DNA of 64,000 bases, from NCBI RefSeq assembly GCF_055900595.2, contig NZ_CM148325.1, one strand, 5' to 3'. The position numbers are program-made. Shown here piece after piece: positions 37,801-64,000 of this stretch. Position 1 is the stretch's first letter. Every line of letters starts with the position of its first letter.

Positions 37801-40800
37801 CGCTCACTACGCGCGAAGTGGCTGAAACTATCAGCAACGGCGAAGCCGGATGCTTTATGCACGGGCCAACCTTTATGGGCAATCCGCTGGCCTGCGCGGC
37901 AGCAAACGCCAGCCTGGCCATTATCGAATCTGGCGACTGGCAGCAGCAGGTAGCGACTATTGAAGCACAACTGCGCGAGCAACTGGCTCCTGCCCGTGAC
38001 GCCGAAATGGTTGCCGATGTGCGCGTGCTGGGAGCGATTGGCGTGGTCGAAACCACTCGTCCGGTGAATATGGCTGCGCTGCAAAAATTCTTTGTCGAAC
38101 AGGGTGTCTGGATCCGACCTTTTGGCAAGCTGATTTACCTGATGCCACCCTATATCATTCACCCGCAACAGTTGCAGCGCCTGACCGCAGCGGTTAATTG
38201 CGCGGTGCAGGATGAAACATTTTTTTGCCAATAACGAGCAGTCAGCGTGAGGTTTTCTGGCTACACTTTCTGCAAACAAGAAAGGAGGGTTCATGAAACT
38301 CATTAGTAATGATCTGCGCGATGGCGATAAGCTGCCGCATCGCCATGTCTTTAACGGCATGGGTTACGATGGCGATAATATTTCGCCGCATCTGGCATGG
38401 GATGATGTTCCTGCGGGAACCAAAAGTTTTGTCGTCACCTGCTACGACCCGGATGCGCCAACTGGCTCTGGCTGGTGGCACTGGGTAGTTGTTAACTTAC
38501 CCGCTGATACCCGCGTATTACCGCAAGGGTTTGGCTCTGGTCTGGTAGCAATGCCAGACGGCGTTTTGCAGACGCGAACTGACTTTGGTAAAACCGGGTA
38601 CGATGGCGCAGCGCCGCCGAAGGGCGAAACTCATCGCTACATTTTTACCGTTCACGCGCTGGATGTAGAACGTATTGATGTCGATGAAGGTGCCAGTGGC
38701 GCGATGGTCGGGTTTAACGTCCATTTCCACTCTCTGGCAAGCGCCTCGATTACTGCGATGTTTAGTTAATTGCTCAACCAGATGGCGCAATGCTATCTGG
38801 TATCACTTAAAGGTATTAAAAACAACTTTTTGTCTTTTTACCTTCCCGTTTCGCTCAAGTTAGTATAAAAAAGCTGAACGTGAAACATTAAAAGCCATTA
38901 ATATCAATGCATTACAATATTTTTAGTCTAAAAAATAGACTACATAATGCTACAAAACACAACATACCCAGTCACTATGAATCAACCACTTAGATGGTAT
39001 TAGTGACCTGTAACAGAGCATTAGCGCAAGGTGACTTTTTGTCTTCTTGCGCTAATTTTTTGTCAAACACATTACGTCGTTTGCTGAATTTACAACCATG
39101 CTCAGTATCTCGATAAGCGCAGAGAAATGATGCAGTGGTGGGCGGATTGGCTTGATGAAAAGGTGTAGCAACCAACATTGCTATATCTCAGATAGCACAA
39201 AGCCTTGCAATCCAGTGCAAAGCTTTGTGTGTCTCAGTTTTGTCTCATCGGTAATTATGTGTTCGCTACGATGCAAGAATCCATACCAATAAGCATCCGA
39301 TAATTGGGAAAGAAAAATCCAACAAACTTCCCACATCCCACACGCGTGGATCAAAACCTCCCCACCACGGCATGTTGACACGTTTCCCTTTCCCAAACTT
39401 TTCTATCCAGCGATATTCTGCCTGGGTGTGTTCACGCGCAATGAAGAACGTACAACCGGCTATCGCACCGTAAGCCCAGTTTCCGGTAAAAATACCAACC
39501 AGTACCTGAGCCGCAAAAGCGCAAAGCGAGTGAAGAAATGGAGTGACATCAATGCTCTTAATCATGAAACTTCCCCATTGGTTGAAAATATGGCTCCTCC
39601 AACTCCAAGTGTATTTCGTGTTGTGCTCAACCTAAGAGGGCTGGAGTCAGAATTAGAATATCCTGTAGCAGAAATAAAAGATCCTCCACTAATAGTCAAC
39701 TGCGGAACATCGGCTATATCTGAATAAGTTCTGTCAGCAACAGTATTATTTATAGCCACATGTGATCCAAAAAAACTTCTTATTGTTTGGTTTTTAACTT
39801 TACTTCCTTCAATGGTTATCCTACTACCACAGTCAGCAATAAATCCTGAATCTGCATCCAGCGTTGCATTCATAAAAGAAGCTTCAGATCTCTCTACATC
39901 AATCCATCTAATATCTTTTGTGGGATTTGCACCAAATACATGACAAATATTAGAGTTAAACCTTACACCATCTTGGAGGTGCATTAATTTTTTTATATCT
40001 GTACCCCATAGCCTTGGAAAATTAACAGATGCTCCTGCATGGCAATCAAATCCCAGCTCAACCCCTGAGATATCTACAGCCTTTCCGGAAATAACAGCAC
40101 CAGTGTCTGCATTAACGGCTGTTCCACAATTGCGCATATCATTACCAGCAACATCAACACAACCCGCACCATCAATACGCACACCAAGTGCACATCCATA
40201 AAAACCTTTTTCAATATTTGGTTCAAGGACTTTACCACTTGTTTCTGCATCACTTTCTTCAACGTCATGTCGTCTTGCATCAACATATGCTGTATGAATG
40301 CACGTTAATCCACGATATGAGCAATGTATAGTTTTATGGTCGCGTATATTAACATTTGAACCATCTCTTACATTCCATCCTATATAACAATAGCTTGCAC
40401 TTGACCCCTGAAAATCTGCTTTAACATTATAAATACAATTAACTGACGCAACCGTACTCTCTGTGCACCGTTCAAACTTACTTACAGGCATTGATGCCTT
40501 GACATTATTTACCAGTTGCAGGGAAGAGTATCTGCTATAAGAAAAATCACATACGTAATACCCTTCTGGCATATATGCAGCAACACTTTCCTCATCAGGA
40601 GCACATCCGGTATGATATGCACTAATTTTTGCACCAAAACTACCATGAATTCCAACGTAGAACTTTCGAGCACCTGAATACGGATAGAAATTAAGTTCAG
40701 CTTTTTGAGTTACAATAAATGCACAAACATCGCTATCATCTCTATTTTCTTCAATCTGAATAGCAAATACAGGACTTTTTGCTGCATCGCAAATGTAAAA

Positions 40801-61800: not shown

Positions 61801-64000
61801 TGGCGGCTATGGTTTGATTCGATTTCGTCTACTGCTTCCTGCCCGATGCGGTTAATCAGTTCGACGCGATACGGAACGAGATTTCCGCTTTTGTGCTGGT
61901 TGCACACCACGCATTGCTTGTGAATATTGCGTTCATCAAATCGGAGTTGAGGTGCCGCAGCAGTTGTCCGGTAATGTCCGGCATCCCACTGAGCAGACGT
62001 GAGCGTTCCGCACGAGATACATGGTAAGTCGCGGTCTCTTTCTCTGATGAAGGCGTTTACGGCTTGTTGGGCTTGTTTAATCCAGTAACTGCGGGGCTTT
62101 AAGGCGAGTTTTCGAATCTTCAGTTTATCTTTCTGTTTCTGCTCCTCTCGTCGTCGTTTCTTCTCTGCTGCTTTTTCCGCTTTTTCGCGTTCTTTACTTC
62201 GTCGTTCGAGTGCTAATTGAGTTCCGTGTTCCGGGCTGCACCACCACTGATTTGAGAATGCCGGGTGAAACCATTCCTTGCAGATTTTGCATTTCCTTCG
62301 CGCTGGTTTAGCCATCGTCTTCTTCCTCGTACATTGAGCTATTCGGATCGCTCATCAGTTCTGCGCAGCAGTGCTCACACACGTGAACTTCCAGCACATG
62401 CAGCTTCTGACCGCAGTTAGCGCACGTTAAAGCCCGCTCGACGCTTTGTTGTTCGTAACTTCGATTTGGGTCAATCACCTTGTTTTCCTCGCACGTTCTC
62501 TAAGCCACCGGATATCCCACAGGTGAGCCGTGTAGTTGAAGGTTTTTACGTCAGATTCTTTCGGGATTGGCTTGCGTTTATTTCTGGAGCGTTTCGTTGG
62601 AAGGTATTTGCAGTTTTCGCAGATTATGTCGGTGATACTTCGTCGCTGTCTCGCCACACGTCCTCCTTTTCCTGCGGTAGTGGTAACACCCCTGTTGGTG
62701 TTCTTTCACGCCGGAGACACCATCGATTCCAGTCAGGTTGATTTGGTCGGAAGCGGTTATCTTCTTTGCATTCACCGCACCGATAACATCGCATCATGCA
62801 GCTTCCCTCCCGAAGTCGAAATAAAGCTGCCCTCCAAATATTTCGCATGACTCAGAACAAGAGCCGGTATCGAATCTTTTAGCTCGTACCATGTCCTGAT
62901 ACAGGGCTTGATAATCATTTTCTGAATACATTTTCGCGATACCATCCAGCGACATTCTTCCTCGGTACATAATCTCCTTTGGTGTTTCCCGATGTCCGTC
63001 ACGCACATGCGATCCCGTGATGACCTCATTAAAAACACGCTGCAATCCCTCCTCATCTTTACAGGCAAGTCCGATTTTTTGCGTTGATTTTTTAATGCAG
63101 AATATGCAGTTACCGAGATGTTCCGGTATTTGCAAATCGAATGGTTGTTGCTTCCACCATGCGAGGATATCTTCCTTCTCAAAGTCTGACAGTTCAGCAA
63201 GATATCTGATTCCAGGCTTTGGCTTTAGCCGCTTCGGTTCATCAGCTCTGATGCCAATCCACGTGGTGTAATTCCCTCGCCCGAAATGGTCATCACAGTA
63301 TTTGGTGAAGGGAACGAGTTTTAATCTGTCAGTGCAGAACGCGCCGCCGACGTATGGAGTGCCATATTTCTTTACCATATCGATAAATGGCTTCAGAACA
63401 GGCATTTTCGTCTGAATATCCTTTGGTTCCCATACCGTATAACCATTTGACTGTCCAAGCTCTGGGTTGATATCAACCTGCAATACAGTGAGCGGTATAT
63501 CCCAGAACTTCACAACTTCGCGGATAAACCGATATGTCATCGGGTGTTCACAACCTGTATCCATGAAAACGTAATGCACGTCTTCACCTGCCTGTCGCTT
63601 TTGCTCCATTAGCCAGAGCAAATATGCTGACGTCCTGCCACCGGAGAAACTAACGACATTTATCATGCAGCCCTGTCTCCCCATCTTGCTTTCCACTCCA
63701 GAGCCAGTCGCGCTTCGTCTGACCACTTAACGCCACGCTCTGTACCAAATGCCTGTATAAGCTCTAATAGCTCCGCAAATTCGCTTACACGCATCCTGCT
63801 GGTTGACTGGCCTATTACCACAAAGCCATTCCCGGCAAGGTTAGGAACAACGTCCTGCTGCTTTAATGCTGCTGTAAAAACGCACTTCCAGCTTTCTGCA
63901 TCCAGCCAGCGACCATGCCATTCAACCTGACGCGAGACGTCACCAAGGCAAGCCCAAAGTTTCCGATTTTGGTCTAAGCTGCGGTTACGTTCCTGAATGG

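Follow-up and report, generated by a model that had tools for sequence, protein, structure and literature searches.

In Escherichia coli transfer-messenger RNA (tmRNA, SsrA), U85 and A86 precede the resume codon, and A86 is the main frame-setting determinant, 'four nucleotides down' (PMC2481249). Among phages, surveys by tmRNA specialists place tmRNAs only in mycobacteriophages and Bacillus phage G, together with a form in DS6A that consists of the tRNA domain only and inhibits tmRNA (PMC4131195, PMC11915505), and tmRNAs detectable by ARAGORN occur in 2.3% of phage genomes (PMC9004378). In the present study, we analysed a 64,000-nucleotide (nt) stretch of the E. coli chromosome (NCBI RefSeq assembly GCF_055900595.2, contig NZ_CM148325.1; hereafter the window), in which positions 38860-64000 hold the attR-to-ninB part of a P22-like (Lederbergvirus-type) prophage. 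The late leader of this prophage, between the terminator that follows the late promoter PR' and the holin gene S, contains a tmRNA-like RNA module of 169 nt (60022-59854, minus strand) that has a tag frame and lacks a tRNA-like domain. In the open-access literature on phage tmRNA-like RNAs and tag peptides, we found no description of such a template-only module.

With high probability, the locus is best explained as a temperate lambdoid phage of the P22-like, short-tailed kind that sits in the lambda attachment site of E. coli and of which the window holds the late (right-hand) half, together with the leader RNA. We also believe, with nearly the same confidence, that the module is a real, conserved and structured RNA with a translated tmRNA-type frame and without a tRNA-like domain. 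The prophage alone is an ordinary, new recombinant of a well-known kind, and the leader RNA matters more than the prophage itself.

Results

The promoter PR' (-35 at 60201-60196, -10 at 60178-60173), the qut region and the first intrinsic terminator (60139-60111) were located on the minus strand at 60111-60201 by a promoter and terminator scan. The initial annotation had taken PR' as nearly that of lambda, which needed correction: identity with lambda in the late leader reaches 60144 only, about 22 nt past the PR' start, and the terminator segment matches P22 and HK620. The spacer between Q and S is 968 bp long, compared with 677 bp in lambda. Within it, 530 bp (59615-60144) are absent from lambda, whose 6S-RNA body, tR' and orf-64 (44609-44847) are replaced by a P22/HK620-type terminator and these 530 bp with the tmRNA-like module. 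At most 45% of the spacer is covered by any one phage record.

The evidence for the module consists of sub-threshold Rfam tmRNA matches, a family alignment, covariation and an antisense match to ssrA. Its parts on the minus strand are an antisense arm (60022-59985), a resume codon GCA (59962-59960), a tag frame for ANDDLMLMAA with its stop (59962-59930), a helix H5, a hairpin (59916-59897) and an H-type pseudoknot (59884-59854). The transcribed strand reads GATAAAT GCA AAC GAT GAT TTG ATG TTG ATG GCG GCC TAA, in which the GATAAAT-GCA stretch looks like a tmRNA resume site followed by the tag frame. With ARAGORN at default settings and the Rfam gathering thresholds, no RNA gene was found in 38000-64000. 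Relaxed Rfam searches gave sub-threshold tmRNA matches of 16-26 bits against cut-offs of 47-84; low-threshold ARAGORN assignments of a tRNA domain were inconsistent and were not used. The position of the module downstream of the PR' terminator implies Q-dependent late expression here, and the predicted transcript would be a stable RNA of roughly 170-210 nt with its start near the AUAGUUUUCG motif. In T1-like copies, a promoter-like TTGACA-17-TAGATT stands about 10 bases before the module.

The 169-nt core matches 463 of 50,697 phage records, 331 of them over at least 80% of its length, and nearly all of these matches fall in unannotated DNA. The records belong to temperate lambdoid and P22-like phages (HK620 among them), P1-like phages, T1-like siphoviruses, N4/G7C-like podoviruses, Kuttervirus myoviruses and Erwinia phages. 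In addition, 669 of 5,426 complete E. coli genomes have a match, mostly on P1-like plasmids of about 90-100 kb. The modules are often found within tRNA gene clusters. Other copies lie at 15827-15997 of HK620 (locus L006), 1501-1680 of locus L186 and approximately 600-770 of locus L187.

Two scans of viral contigs gave a family of 123 members (110 distinct). In every member the frame is exactly 10 codons long, codon 1 is GCN (Ala), codon 2 Asn, codon 3 Asp or Glu, and codon 10 Ala, for which all four synonyms are used; codon 11 is always a stop (TAA in 119, TAG in 2 and TGA in 2). Position -4 from the resume codon is likewise A in 123/123, and position -5 is U in 118 and C in 5. The members specify at least 20 different tag peptides of the form AN[D/E]...[A/V]A, such as ANDEQFLAVA, ANDDVVLMAA, ANEEMYLAVA (HK620) and ANDNYALAAA, with constant ends and a variable middle as in bacterial tags. 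Furthermore, no in-frame ATG, GTG or TTG follows the nearest upstream stop in 112 of the 123, which makes ordinary translation initiation unlikely.

The proposed structure consists of a helix enclosing the end of the tag frame and the stop codon, a 5-bp hairpin and the H-type pseudoknot. In a 51-sequence alignment, 94% of the cells pair, compared with 41-52% for slid partners; 13 pairs are changed on both sides (112 cells), and 0/500 shuffles reached the observed score. Variants of the hairpin and the pseudoknot are compensatory, with at least eight compensatory versions of the second pseudoknot stem. The downstream H-type pseudoknot is strongly supported; there is no clear equivalent of tmRNA pseudoknot 1, and an internal helix, Ha, shows little covariation. 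A tRNA-like domain, with its G3:U70 acceptor stem, T-arm and 3' CCA, was sought with ARAGORN at default settings; neither the window nor any of about 170 family loci yielded a tmRNA, whether standard or permuted.

The 5' arm (60022-59985) is the reverse complement of nt 106-68 of E. coli tmRNA (ssrA) in collinear blocks (32/42, E 1e-5). The block TAGTTTTCGTC pairs with GACGAAAACUA (host tag codons 3-6), GCGACT with AGUCGC around the host resume codon, and TTGCGG and TTTTTA pair with the 3' strand of host pseudoknot 1. This mapping holds for the lambdoid and T1-like variants tested, and the Kuttervirus variant is significant over nt 68-81 only. The core motif AGTTTTCG, which reads TAGTTTTCGT in the subtype of the window, is kept in nearly all tag groups regardless of their own tag, and its complement is found in no phage tag. 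The copy in Erwinia phage Y2 has GAAGTTTTCG, matching Erwinia ssrA CGAAAACTTC / CGAAAACUUC (tag ANDENF...), which is suggestive of host tracking but turns on one or two bases. RNAduplex gave -49.8 for the module with ssrA versus -38.4 +/- 4.2 for shuffles, a modest excess, and the collinear block match was relied on instead. These comparisons show that the module is conserved and structured, that its frame bears the marks of translation via tmRNA, that a tRNA-like domain is lacking and that the 5' arm is complementary to host tmRNA exactly where the host template starts.

The module is flanked on the minus strand by two junction hairpins of the form CACAACAGGTAAGAGCATT - variable cassette - AGTGCTCTTTCCGTTGTG. 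The first (CACAACAGGTAAGAGCATT ... AGTGCTCTTATCGTTGTG; 60101-60034) was read from the sequence and the second (59685-59599) was placed by comparison with lambda. Such hairpins lie on either side of RNA modules and tRNA genes in many phages that are unrelated to one another. Lambda is among them; it has one hairpin (about 44790-44860) and the helix-closed module that follows it, together at about 44790-44945. Both junction-hairpin helices covary in Kuttervirus and P1-like copies. A helix closing the whole tmRNA-like module (5' AGTGCTC with 3' GAGCATT) was also considered and was rejected, since the covariation in Kuttervirus and P1-like copies favours local junction hairpins enclosing variable cassettes. 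The cassettes vary between loci and some resemble tRNA fragments; one possibility is that they serve as RNA processing sites. Between the module and the second hairpin, an extra cassette (59686-59853, minus strand) read from the sequence carries a tRNA-fragment-like piece (GGTTCGATTCC), and ARAGORN finds no tRNA in it. The second hairpin is followed by the helix-closed leader module (GTTGTGCTG ... CAGCACAAC; approximately 59520-59604, minus strand), which is common to lambda (about 44855-44945), has no Rfam match and has a closing helix that covaries in other phages (GTTGTGGTG ... CACCACAAC). We know of no described function for it. As a separate observation, the cassette beside the tmRNA-like module on a related prophage contig (L030, 7921-7967, minus strand) contains a complete hammerhead type I core (CUGACGAG ... 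GGACGAAAC ... GUC), which stays below the Rfam cut-off (24.7 versus 34 bits).

For the prophage as a whole, genes were compared by tblastn and DNA by blastn with lambda (NC_001416), P22 (AF217253), CUS-3 (CP000711), HK620, Sf6 and JEP4 (MT740315, Lederbergvirus), plus the EC332 prophage (NZ_AP039429.1, about 1,573,200-1,612,350) as the best chromosomal match. The prophage is inserted exactly at the lambda attachment (att) core, between ybhB and ybhC. The core GCTTTTTTATACTAA (38860-38874, minus strand) is the attR crossover and forms the junction of prophage and host beside ybhB; it is a single exact match, with 0 expected by chance. From 14000 to 38874 the window agrees at 100% with several complete E. 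coli genomes whose site is empty (ybhB directly followed by ybhC), and this identity stops at 38874, exactly at the att core. The adjoining lambda-type attP P arm (38875-39065, no strand assigned) is 88% nt identical to lambda 27534-27742. It abuts the end of an integrase gene of HK620/CUS-3/Sf6 type (39088-39168, plus strand), an 81-bp piece of the last 26 codons and the stop that is 100% identical by tblastn to residues 359-384 of CUS-3 and HK620 Int, in a segment 85-87% nt identical to HK620/CUS-3/Sf6-type phages. The contact between a lambda-type P arm and such a relic indicates that a lambda-type integration module replaced an HK620-type one. Beside the lambda-type attP arm, the relic is thus preserved as a fossil of the replacement. 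The Int proteins of EC332 and JEP4 are 99.4% and 99.2% amino acid (aa) identical to lambda Int, and by analogy the prophage in the window would use a lambda-type Int. P22 integrates at thrW; since JEP4 was isolated with a lambda-type Int, a P22-like phage using the lambda site is already on record.

Recombination among lambdoid and P22-like phages gave rise to this genome, in line with the lambdoid mosaicism that the initial annotation had described. The per-gene and per-segment best matches differ sharply among lambda, P22, Sf6, HK620, CUS-3 and JEP4, so that uniform identity to one known phage is absent; no phage record spans 80% or more of the prophage region, the best being JEP4 with 66% at 96.2% nt. 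The table of per-gene identities likewise led us to reject a prophage that is simply lambda-like or simply P22-like. The integration site and the nin-Q-PR' block are of lambda type, the lysis genes of CUS-3/Sf6 type, TerS of P22 type, the head genes of CUS-3 type and the tailspike of JEP4 type.

Several joints could be placed precisely. The small terminase TerS is 100% aa and 98.6% nt identical to that of P22, as the near-identity claimed for it required, and the adjacent large terminase TerL reaches only 92% aa and 87.2% nt, which places a joint between genes 3 and 2; neither has a match in CUS-3, HK620 or Sf6. A presumed P22 pac sequence was not detected even in P22 and was dropped. At the TerL/portal joint (about 54700) the best match turns to CUS-3 and runs from there down to 45639 at 95.6% nt. 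Identity with CUS-3 is 95% aa for the coat and 99% each for scaffold, portal and gp4, compared with 28% for the coat, 34% for the portal, 41% for gp4 and no hit for the scaffold in P22. The coat and the tailspike body had been singled out as distant from P22; both are, with the tailspike sharing the N-terminal head-binding domain only, but the list of distant head genes was incomplete, since portal, gp4 and scaffold are equally distant. Coat, scaffold and portal therefore belong to the CUS-3 virion-assembly subtype, with a terminase of P22/JEP4 type instead. The proteins gp10 and gp14 are 92-100% aa identical in all reference phages and gp7 is likewise conserved in all; gp26 is of CUS-3/HK620 type, and gp20 and gp16 are patchworks.

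Upstream of the terminase genes, the stretch 56684-57212 is Sf6-like (97.5%), with joints at both ends, and the KilA-N gene beyond it has no match among the reference phages. CUS-3 and Sf6 match the lysis cassette at 97%. S and R are indeed lambda-like (99% and 98% aa), but at least as close to CUS-3 and Sf6, and this type is common to all P22-like phages of E. coli and Shigella. The assignment of Rz/Rz1 to lambda was mistaken: identity is 60% (Rz) and 42% (Rz1) aa to lambda and 88-94% to P22, CUS-3 and Sf6, and a joint lies inside Rz at approximately 58236-58287, where a lambda-like stretch ends. From 60144 to 64000 the prophage is collinear with lambda 44609-40747 at 97.0% nt. Within it, Q plus PR' is 98% lambda-like, Q is 100% and NinC-NinI are 94-100% aa identical, as had been proposed for Q and the nin genes. 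Module boundaries had been expected in the accessory region and near attR; the joint near attR was placed as described above, and the joints at TerS/TerL, at TerL/portal, at 56684/57212, inside Rz and at 60144 bring the number above that expected.

Every long virion, lysis, Q and nin open reading frame (ORF) from the att core to the window end is on the minus strand, with a divergent accessory block interposed; the features below are on the minus strand unless stated otherwise. The virion-assembly order is collinear with P22, 3-2-1-8-5-(small ORF)-4-10-26-14-7-20-16 ... 9, according to the ORF map, Pfam and tblastn against P22, CUS-3, HK620, Sf6 and JEP4, so that the P22-like order and the coordinates of the initial annotation from tailspike to TerS were accurate. 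Beginning at the att core, an accessory 99-aa membrane protein (39266-39565; 100% aa to its JEP4 homologue; phrog_1443, function unassigned) lies downstream of the tailspike gene (gp9 analogue, 39562-41619). The tailspike joins a P22-type head-binding domain (Pfam Head_binding, residues 1-113, E 1.9e-65) to a JEP4-type receptor-binding body, and is 97% aa identical to that of JEP4. Its PDB matches, the N-termini of the P22 and Sf6 tailspikes, are limited to residues 1-160, and its likeness to P22 is limited to the N-terminal head-binding domain.

The accessory block follows. An mnt-like repressor gene with an altered C-terminal end (41766-42134, plus strand) matches Pfam Arc and Repressor_Mnt at residues 3-80; arc and ant are absent beside it, and RefSeq calls the mnt-like gene of EC332 partial. 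Two further accessory genes encode a predicted lipoprotein (42033-42464; phrog_6823; weak PEGA-domain match) and a secreted 129-aa protein (42570-42959, plus strand; phrog_2651), both of unassigned function and both with a signal sequence in the translation. These two genes (42033-42959) occupy the P22 sieA/immI position and may have exclusion or conversion functions; PADLOC gave no meaningful match for the accessory ORFs at 42033-42959.

The ejection proteins gp16 (42984-44825), gp20 (44822-46237) and gp7 (46248-46940) are 74%, 51% and 93% aa identical to P22; their genes are internally mosaic and match Pfam Inj_translocase and P22_gp7. Then come gp14, gp26 (needle), gp10, gp4 and a 62-aa ORF (46943-50157; tblastn, Pfam), coat (50199-51458), scaffold (51477-52370) and portal (52461-54662), the last three of CUS-3 type, and the P22-type terminases TerL (54662-56158; Pfam Terminase_6N/6C) and TerS (56136-56624; Pfam GP3_package). 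Pfam matches in the virion genes also include P22_portal (E 3e-170), P22_CoatProtein (2e-74), P22_Tail-4 and Phage_stabilise. Two accessory ORFs, an Sf6 gp66-like protein (56648-57046; 97% aa to Sf6; Pfam Phage_gp49_66) and a KilA-N domain protein (57335-57856; Pfam KilA-N), precede the lysis genes, namely Rz (58058-58495) with embedded Rz1 (58111-58293) of P22/CUS-3/Sf6 type, the endolysin R (58492-58968; 97-99% aa to lambda, CUS-3, Sf6 and HK620) and the holin S (58952-59275; 99-100% aa to the same phages). Beyond the non-coding leader stand the late antiterminator Q (60244-60867; 97.9% nt to lambda Q) and the lambda-type genes ninI (60864-61529), ninH (61507-61713), ninG (61710-62315), ninF (62308-62478), ninE (62475-62657), ninD (62624-62797), ninC (62794-63666) and ninB (63663 onward, cut by the window end). 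The Pfam families of the lysis, late-control and nin genes are Phage_holin_3_1, Phage_lysis, Rz1, Antiterm (Q), Metallophos, NinG and PAPS_reduct, and the phosphatase family of NinI is recognised.

On the host side of the window, a low-GC island (3955-7956; guanine-plus-cytosine (GC) content about 30-35%) lies between a dinG-like (1521-3809) and an rhlE-like (8062-9423) helicase gene. It codes for a 670-aa protein whose catalytic domain is SopA-like (HECT-type E3 ligase) and for a 561-aa protein without family match. A second such island (26064-30496; GC about 29-33%), between yvcK and uvrB, codes for three proteins, of 405 aa (SopA-like), 321 aa (pentapeptide-repeat) and 550 aa (without family match). 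It gave no PADLOC hits and is found in some E. coli genomes only (present in Z0117EC0005, absent from EC332). Between ybhN and ybhL, a lower-GC stretch at about 18757-20930 holds extra paralogues of the Bax-inhibitor-1/YccA family and a DUF3969 gene (by the annotation of the identical region in NZ_CP098223 only).

Discussion

On induction, from the known biology of lambda and P22, Q would modify RNA polymerase at PR'/qut and allow read-through of the terminator at 60139-60111, and leftward transcription would then cover the leader and the lysis, terminase, head, ejection and tailspike genes. We tentatively propose that, late in infection, the 5' arm of the leader RNA would pair with nt 68-106 of host tmRNA (from the 3' half of pseudoknot 1 through the resume codon into the first tag codons) and mask the host tag template. 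The leader RNA would offer its own resume codon and 10-codon frame, relying on the host tRNA-like domain and SmpB, so that rescued ribosomes would add a tag specified by the phage (a 'tag swap'). According to this proposal, a template-only RNA would dock on host tmRNA as a hybrid, two-piece tmRNA acting in trans, and ANDDLMLMAA would be appended in place of ANDENYALAA. We put it forward as a possibility that is more doubtful than probable, read from the sequence.

Several points speak against it. To our knowledge, no trans-acting template for trans-translation has ever been shown. Folded as a single sequence, the module has an energy that does not improve on shuffles (z 0.12), so support for the structure comes from covariation only. 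Some of the conservation of the antisense arm could be due to the internal helix Ha, which overlaps it. Furthermore, many lambdoid copies have C, not T, opposite the A of host UAC, so that the evidence for host tracking comes down to one or two bases.

An equally tentative explanation is that the sole role of the module is antisense inhibition or sponging of host tmRNA (alternatively of SmpB, S1 or RNase R), for a late shutdown of tagging and rescue, and that the frame is not translated. The conserved antisense arm agrees with this, as do two precedents, the mini-tmRNA of mycobacteriophage DS6A, which has the tRNA-like domain only and inhibits tmRNA (PMC4131195, PMC11915505), and the sensitivity of lambda-P22 hybrid phages to tmRNA function (PMC2481249). 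What inhibition leaves unexplained is the set of features found in 123/123 members: the frame length, the changes from stop to stop, the four Ala synonyms, tags that begin with Ala-Asn-Asp/Glu and end in hydrophobic-Ala-Ala, and the A at -4. These frame statistics argue against a pure inhibitor, as they do against a relic.

It is considerably less likely that the module is the coding piece of a two-piece tmRNA of the phage itself, with the acceptor piece nearby, in the tRNA-like cassettes, or elsewhere in the phage. Two-piece tmRNAs do occur in phages (PMC9004378), some neighbouring cassettes have T-arm-like hairpins (GGTTCGAATCC), and the modules are often in tRNA gene clusters. However, the ARAGORN search of the roughly 170 loci recovered no tmRNA of either standard or permuted form, the cassettes vary by locus, and they are absent in T1-like copies, in which the promoter directly precedes the antisense arm. 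No complement of the 5' arm was found elsewhere in the window or in the searched reference phages, where the only other hits fell in HK620's own copy, and this lack of a conserved partner counts against a two-piece tmRNA. Prophages that use ssrA as their integration site are known to carry pieces of the gene (PMC9004378), but that the module is a decaying, functionless fragment of a captured tmRNA gene is most improbable in view of its compensatory upkeep in P1-like plasmids and in phages, virulent as well as temperate, that belong to at least five unrelated types, and of its holding the 5'-third tag region and not the 3' end duplicated by attP sites.

Should the tag swap be true, lambdoid, P22-like, P1-like, T1-like, N4-like and Kuttervirus phages would reprogram the degradation tag in ribosome rescue; host take-over of this kind would be new, and tmRNA would for the first time be seen to receive a natural template in trans. 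Whatever the mechanism, a structured RNA in well-studied phages (HK620, P1-like plasmids) has been missed by annotation and by RNA family libraries.

Regarding the prophage, the virion, lysis and late-control genes within the window all have their full length, each with a match to its Pfam family. Together with a complete prophage of 99.9% identity in EC332, these full-length late genes make it reasonable to regard the prophage as likely intact, and the TerS protein, being identical to that of P22, suggests P22-like pac recognition. That the region is instead a defective (cryptic) remnant, no longer phage-producing, of which only the late half looks intact, appears unlikely. Such a reading could draw on the ending of the window in ninB, with the replication, immunity and integration genes beyond it, on the altered end of mnt and the missing arc and ant, and on several partial early accessory genes in the EC332 relative. 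Against it stand 13 virion genes, four lysis genes, Q and the nin genes, all full length with strong family matches, both features next to the att site, which are intact, and the int, xis, repressor, cro, cII, replication genes and N that the EC332 relative retains. HK620-type phages can do without the immI genes; all that is left of the region here is an mnt-like gene with a changed end, and the same reduction is seen in HK620, whose record annotates mere remnants of mnt and ant. Two points nevertheless limit the interpretation as a temperate phage: the early region, int and attL lie outside the window, and the immI region is degenerate.

Among the relatives, the EC332 prophage is 99.9% nt identical over 38800-60878 of the window and 99.8% over 62484-64000, with the same ybhC/ybhB insertion site and the same tmRNA-like leader. 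It is complete from lambda-type int/xis, which adjoin ybhC, through the early region to the tailspike. The two differ in a nin cassette of about 1.6 kb bounded by Q and ninF/ninE (60878-62484 in the window; 34018-36095 of locus L001 in EC332), where EC332 has ninX-ninF-roi(KilAC)-DUF1364-rusA-ninH and the window the lambda-type ninF-ninG-ninH-ninI. Such a swap between prophages that are otherwise 99.9% identical directly attests to recent exchange. The closest isolated phage is JEP4, with TerS, TerL, portal, scaffold, gp4, gp10 and gp14 at 98-100% aa, a closely similar tailspike and a lambda-type Int; it differs in gp26, gp16, part of gp20, the immI region, a short 21/Sf6-like Q and the Rz type, has no ninC/D/G, and showed no tmRNA-like module in a family-pattern search.

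CUS-3 resembles the prophage in portal, scaffold, coat, gp4, gp10, gp26, gp14, S, R and Rz/Rz1 (93-100% aa) and differs in terminase, endosialidase tailspike, Q, argW-type integrase and nin genes. P22 shares the gene order throughout, gp7, gp10 and gp14 at 92-93%, Q (gp23) at 96% and Rz/Rz1 at 88-93% aa, whereas its portal, scaffold, coat and gp4 give 28-41% or no hit, its tailspike body and endolysin type differ, and it has ninX/Y/Z without ninC/ninI. With lambda the prophage has in common the att core and P arm, the ninB-C-D-E-F-G-H-I-Q-PR' block at 97% nt and S and R at 98-99% aa, but it has none of the lambda virion genes, and Rz/Rz1 differ. It is thus one more documented recombinant in the P22-like/lambdoid gene pool, and a clean illustration with several precisely placed joints.

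The leader module itself compares most closely with tmRNA (SsrA). Both have U at -5 and A at -4, Ala as first codon, a 10-codon AN[D/E]...AA tag, near the ANDENYALAA of E. coli, a stop codon within a helix and an H-type pseudoknot downstream, and the module is most akin to the mRNA-like domain, or the coding piece of two-piece tmRNAs. In contrast to tmRNA, it has no acceptor stem or T-arm, is about 170 nt long with one pseudoknot, and carries a 5' arm that is antisense to host tmRNA. The mini-tmRNA of DS6A is likewise a phage-borne partial tmRNA and is considered to disturb trans-translation in its host (PMC4131195, PMC11915505). It has retained the tRNA-like domain without a tag template, whereas the leader module has the reverse, so that the two are mirror images of each other.

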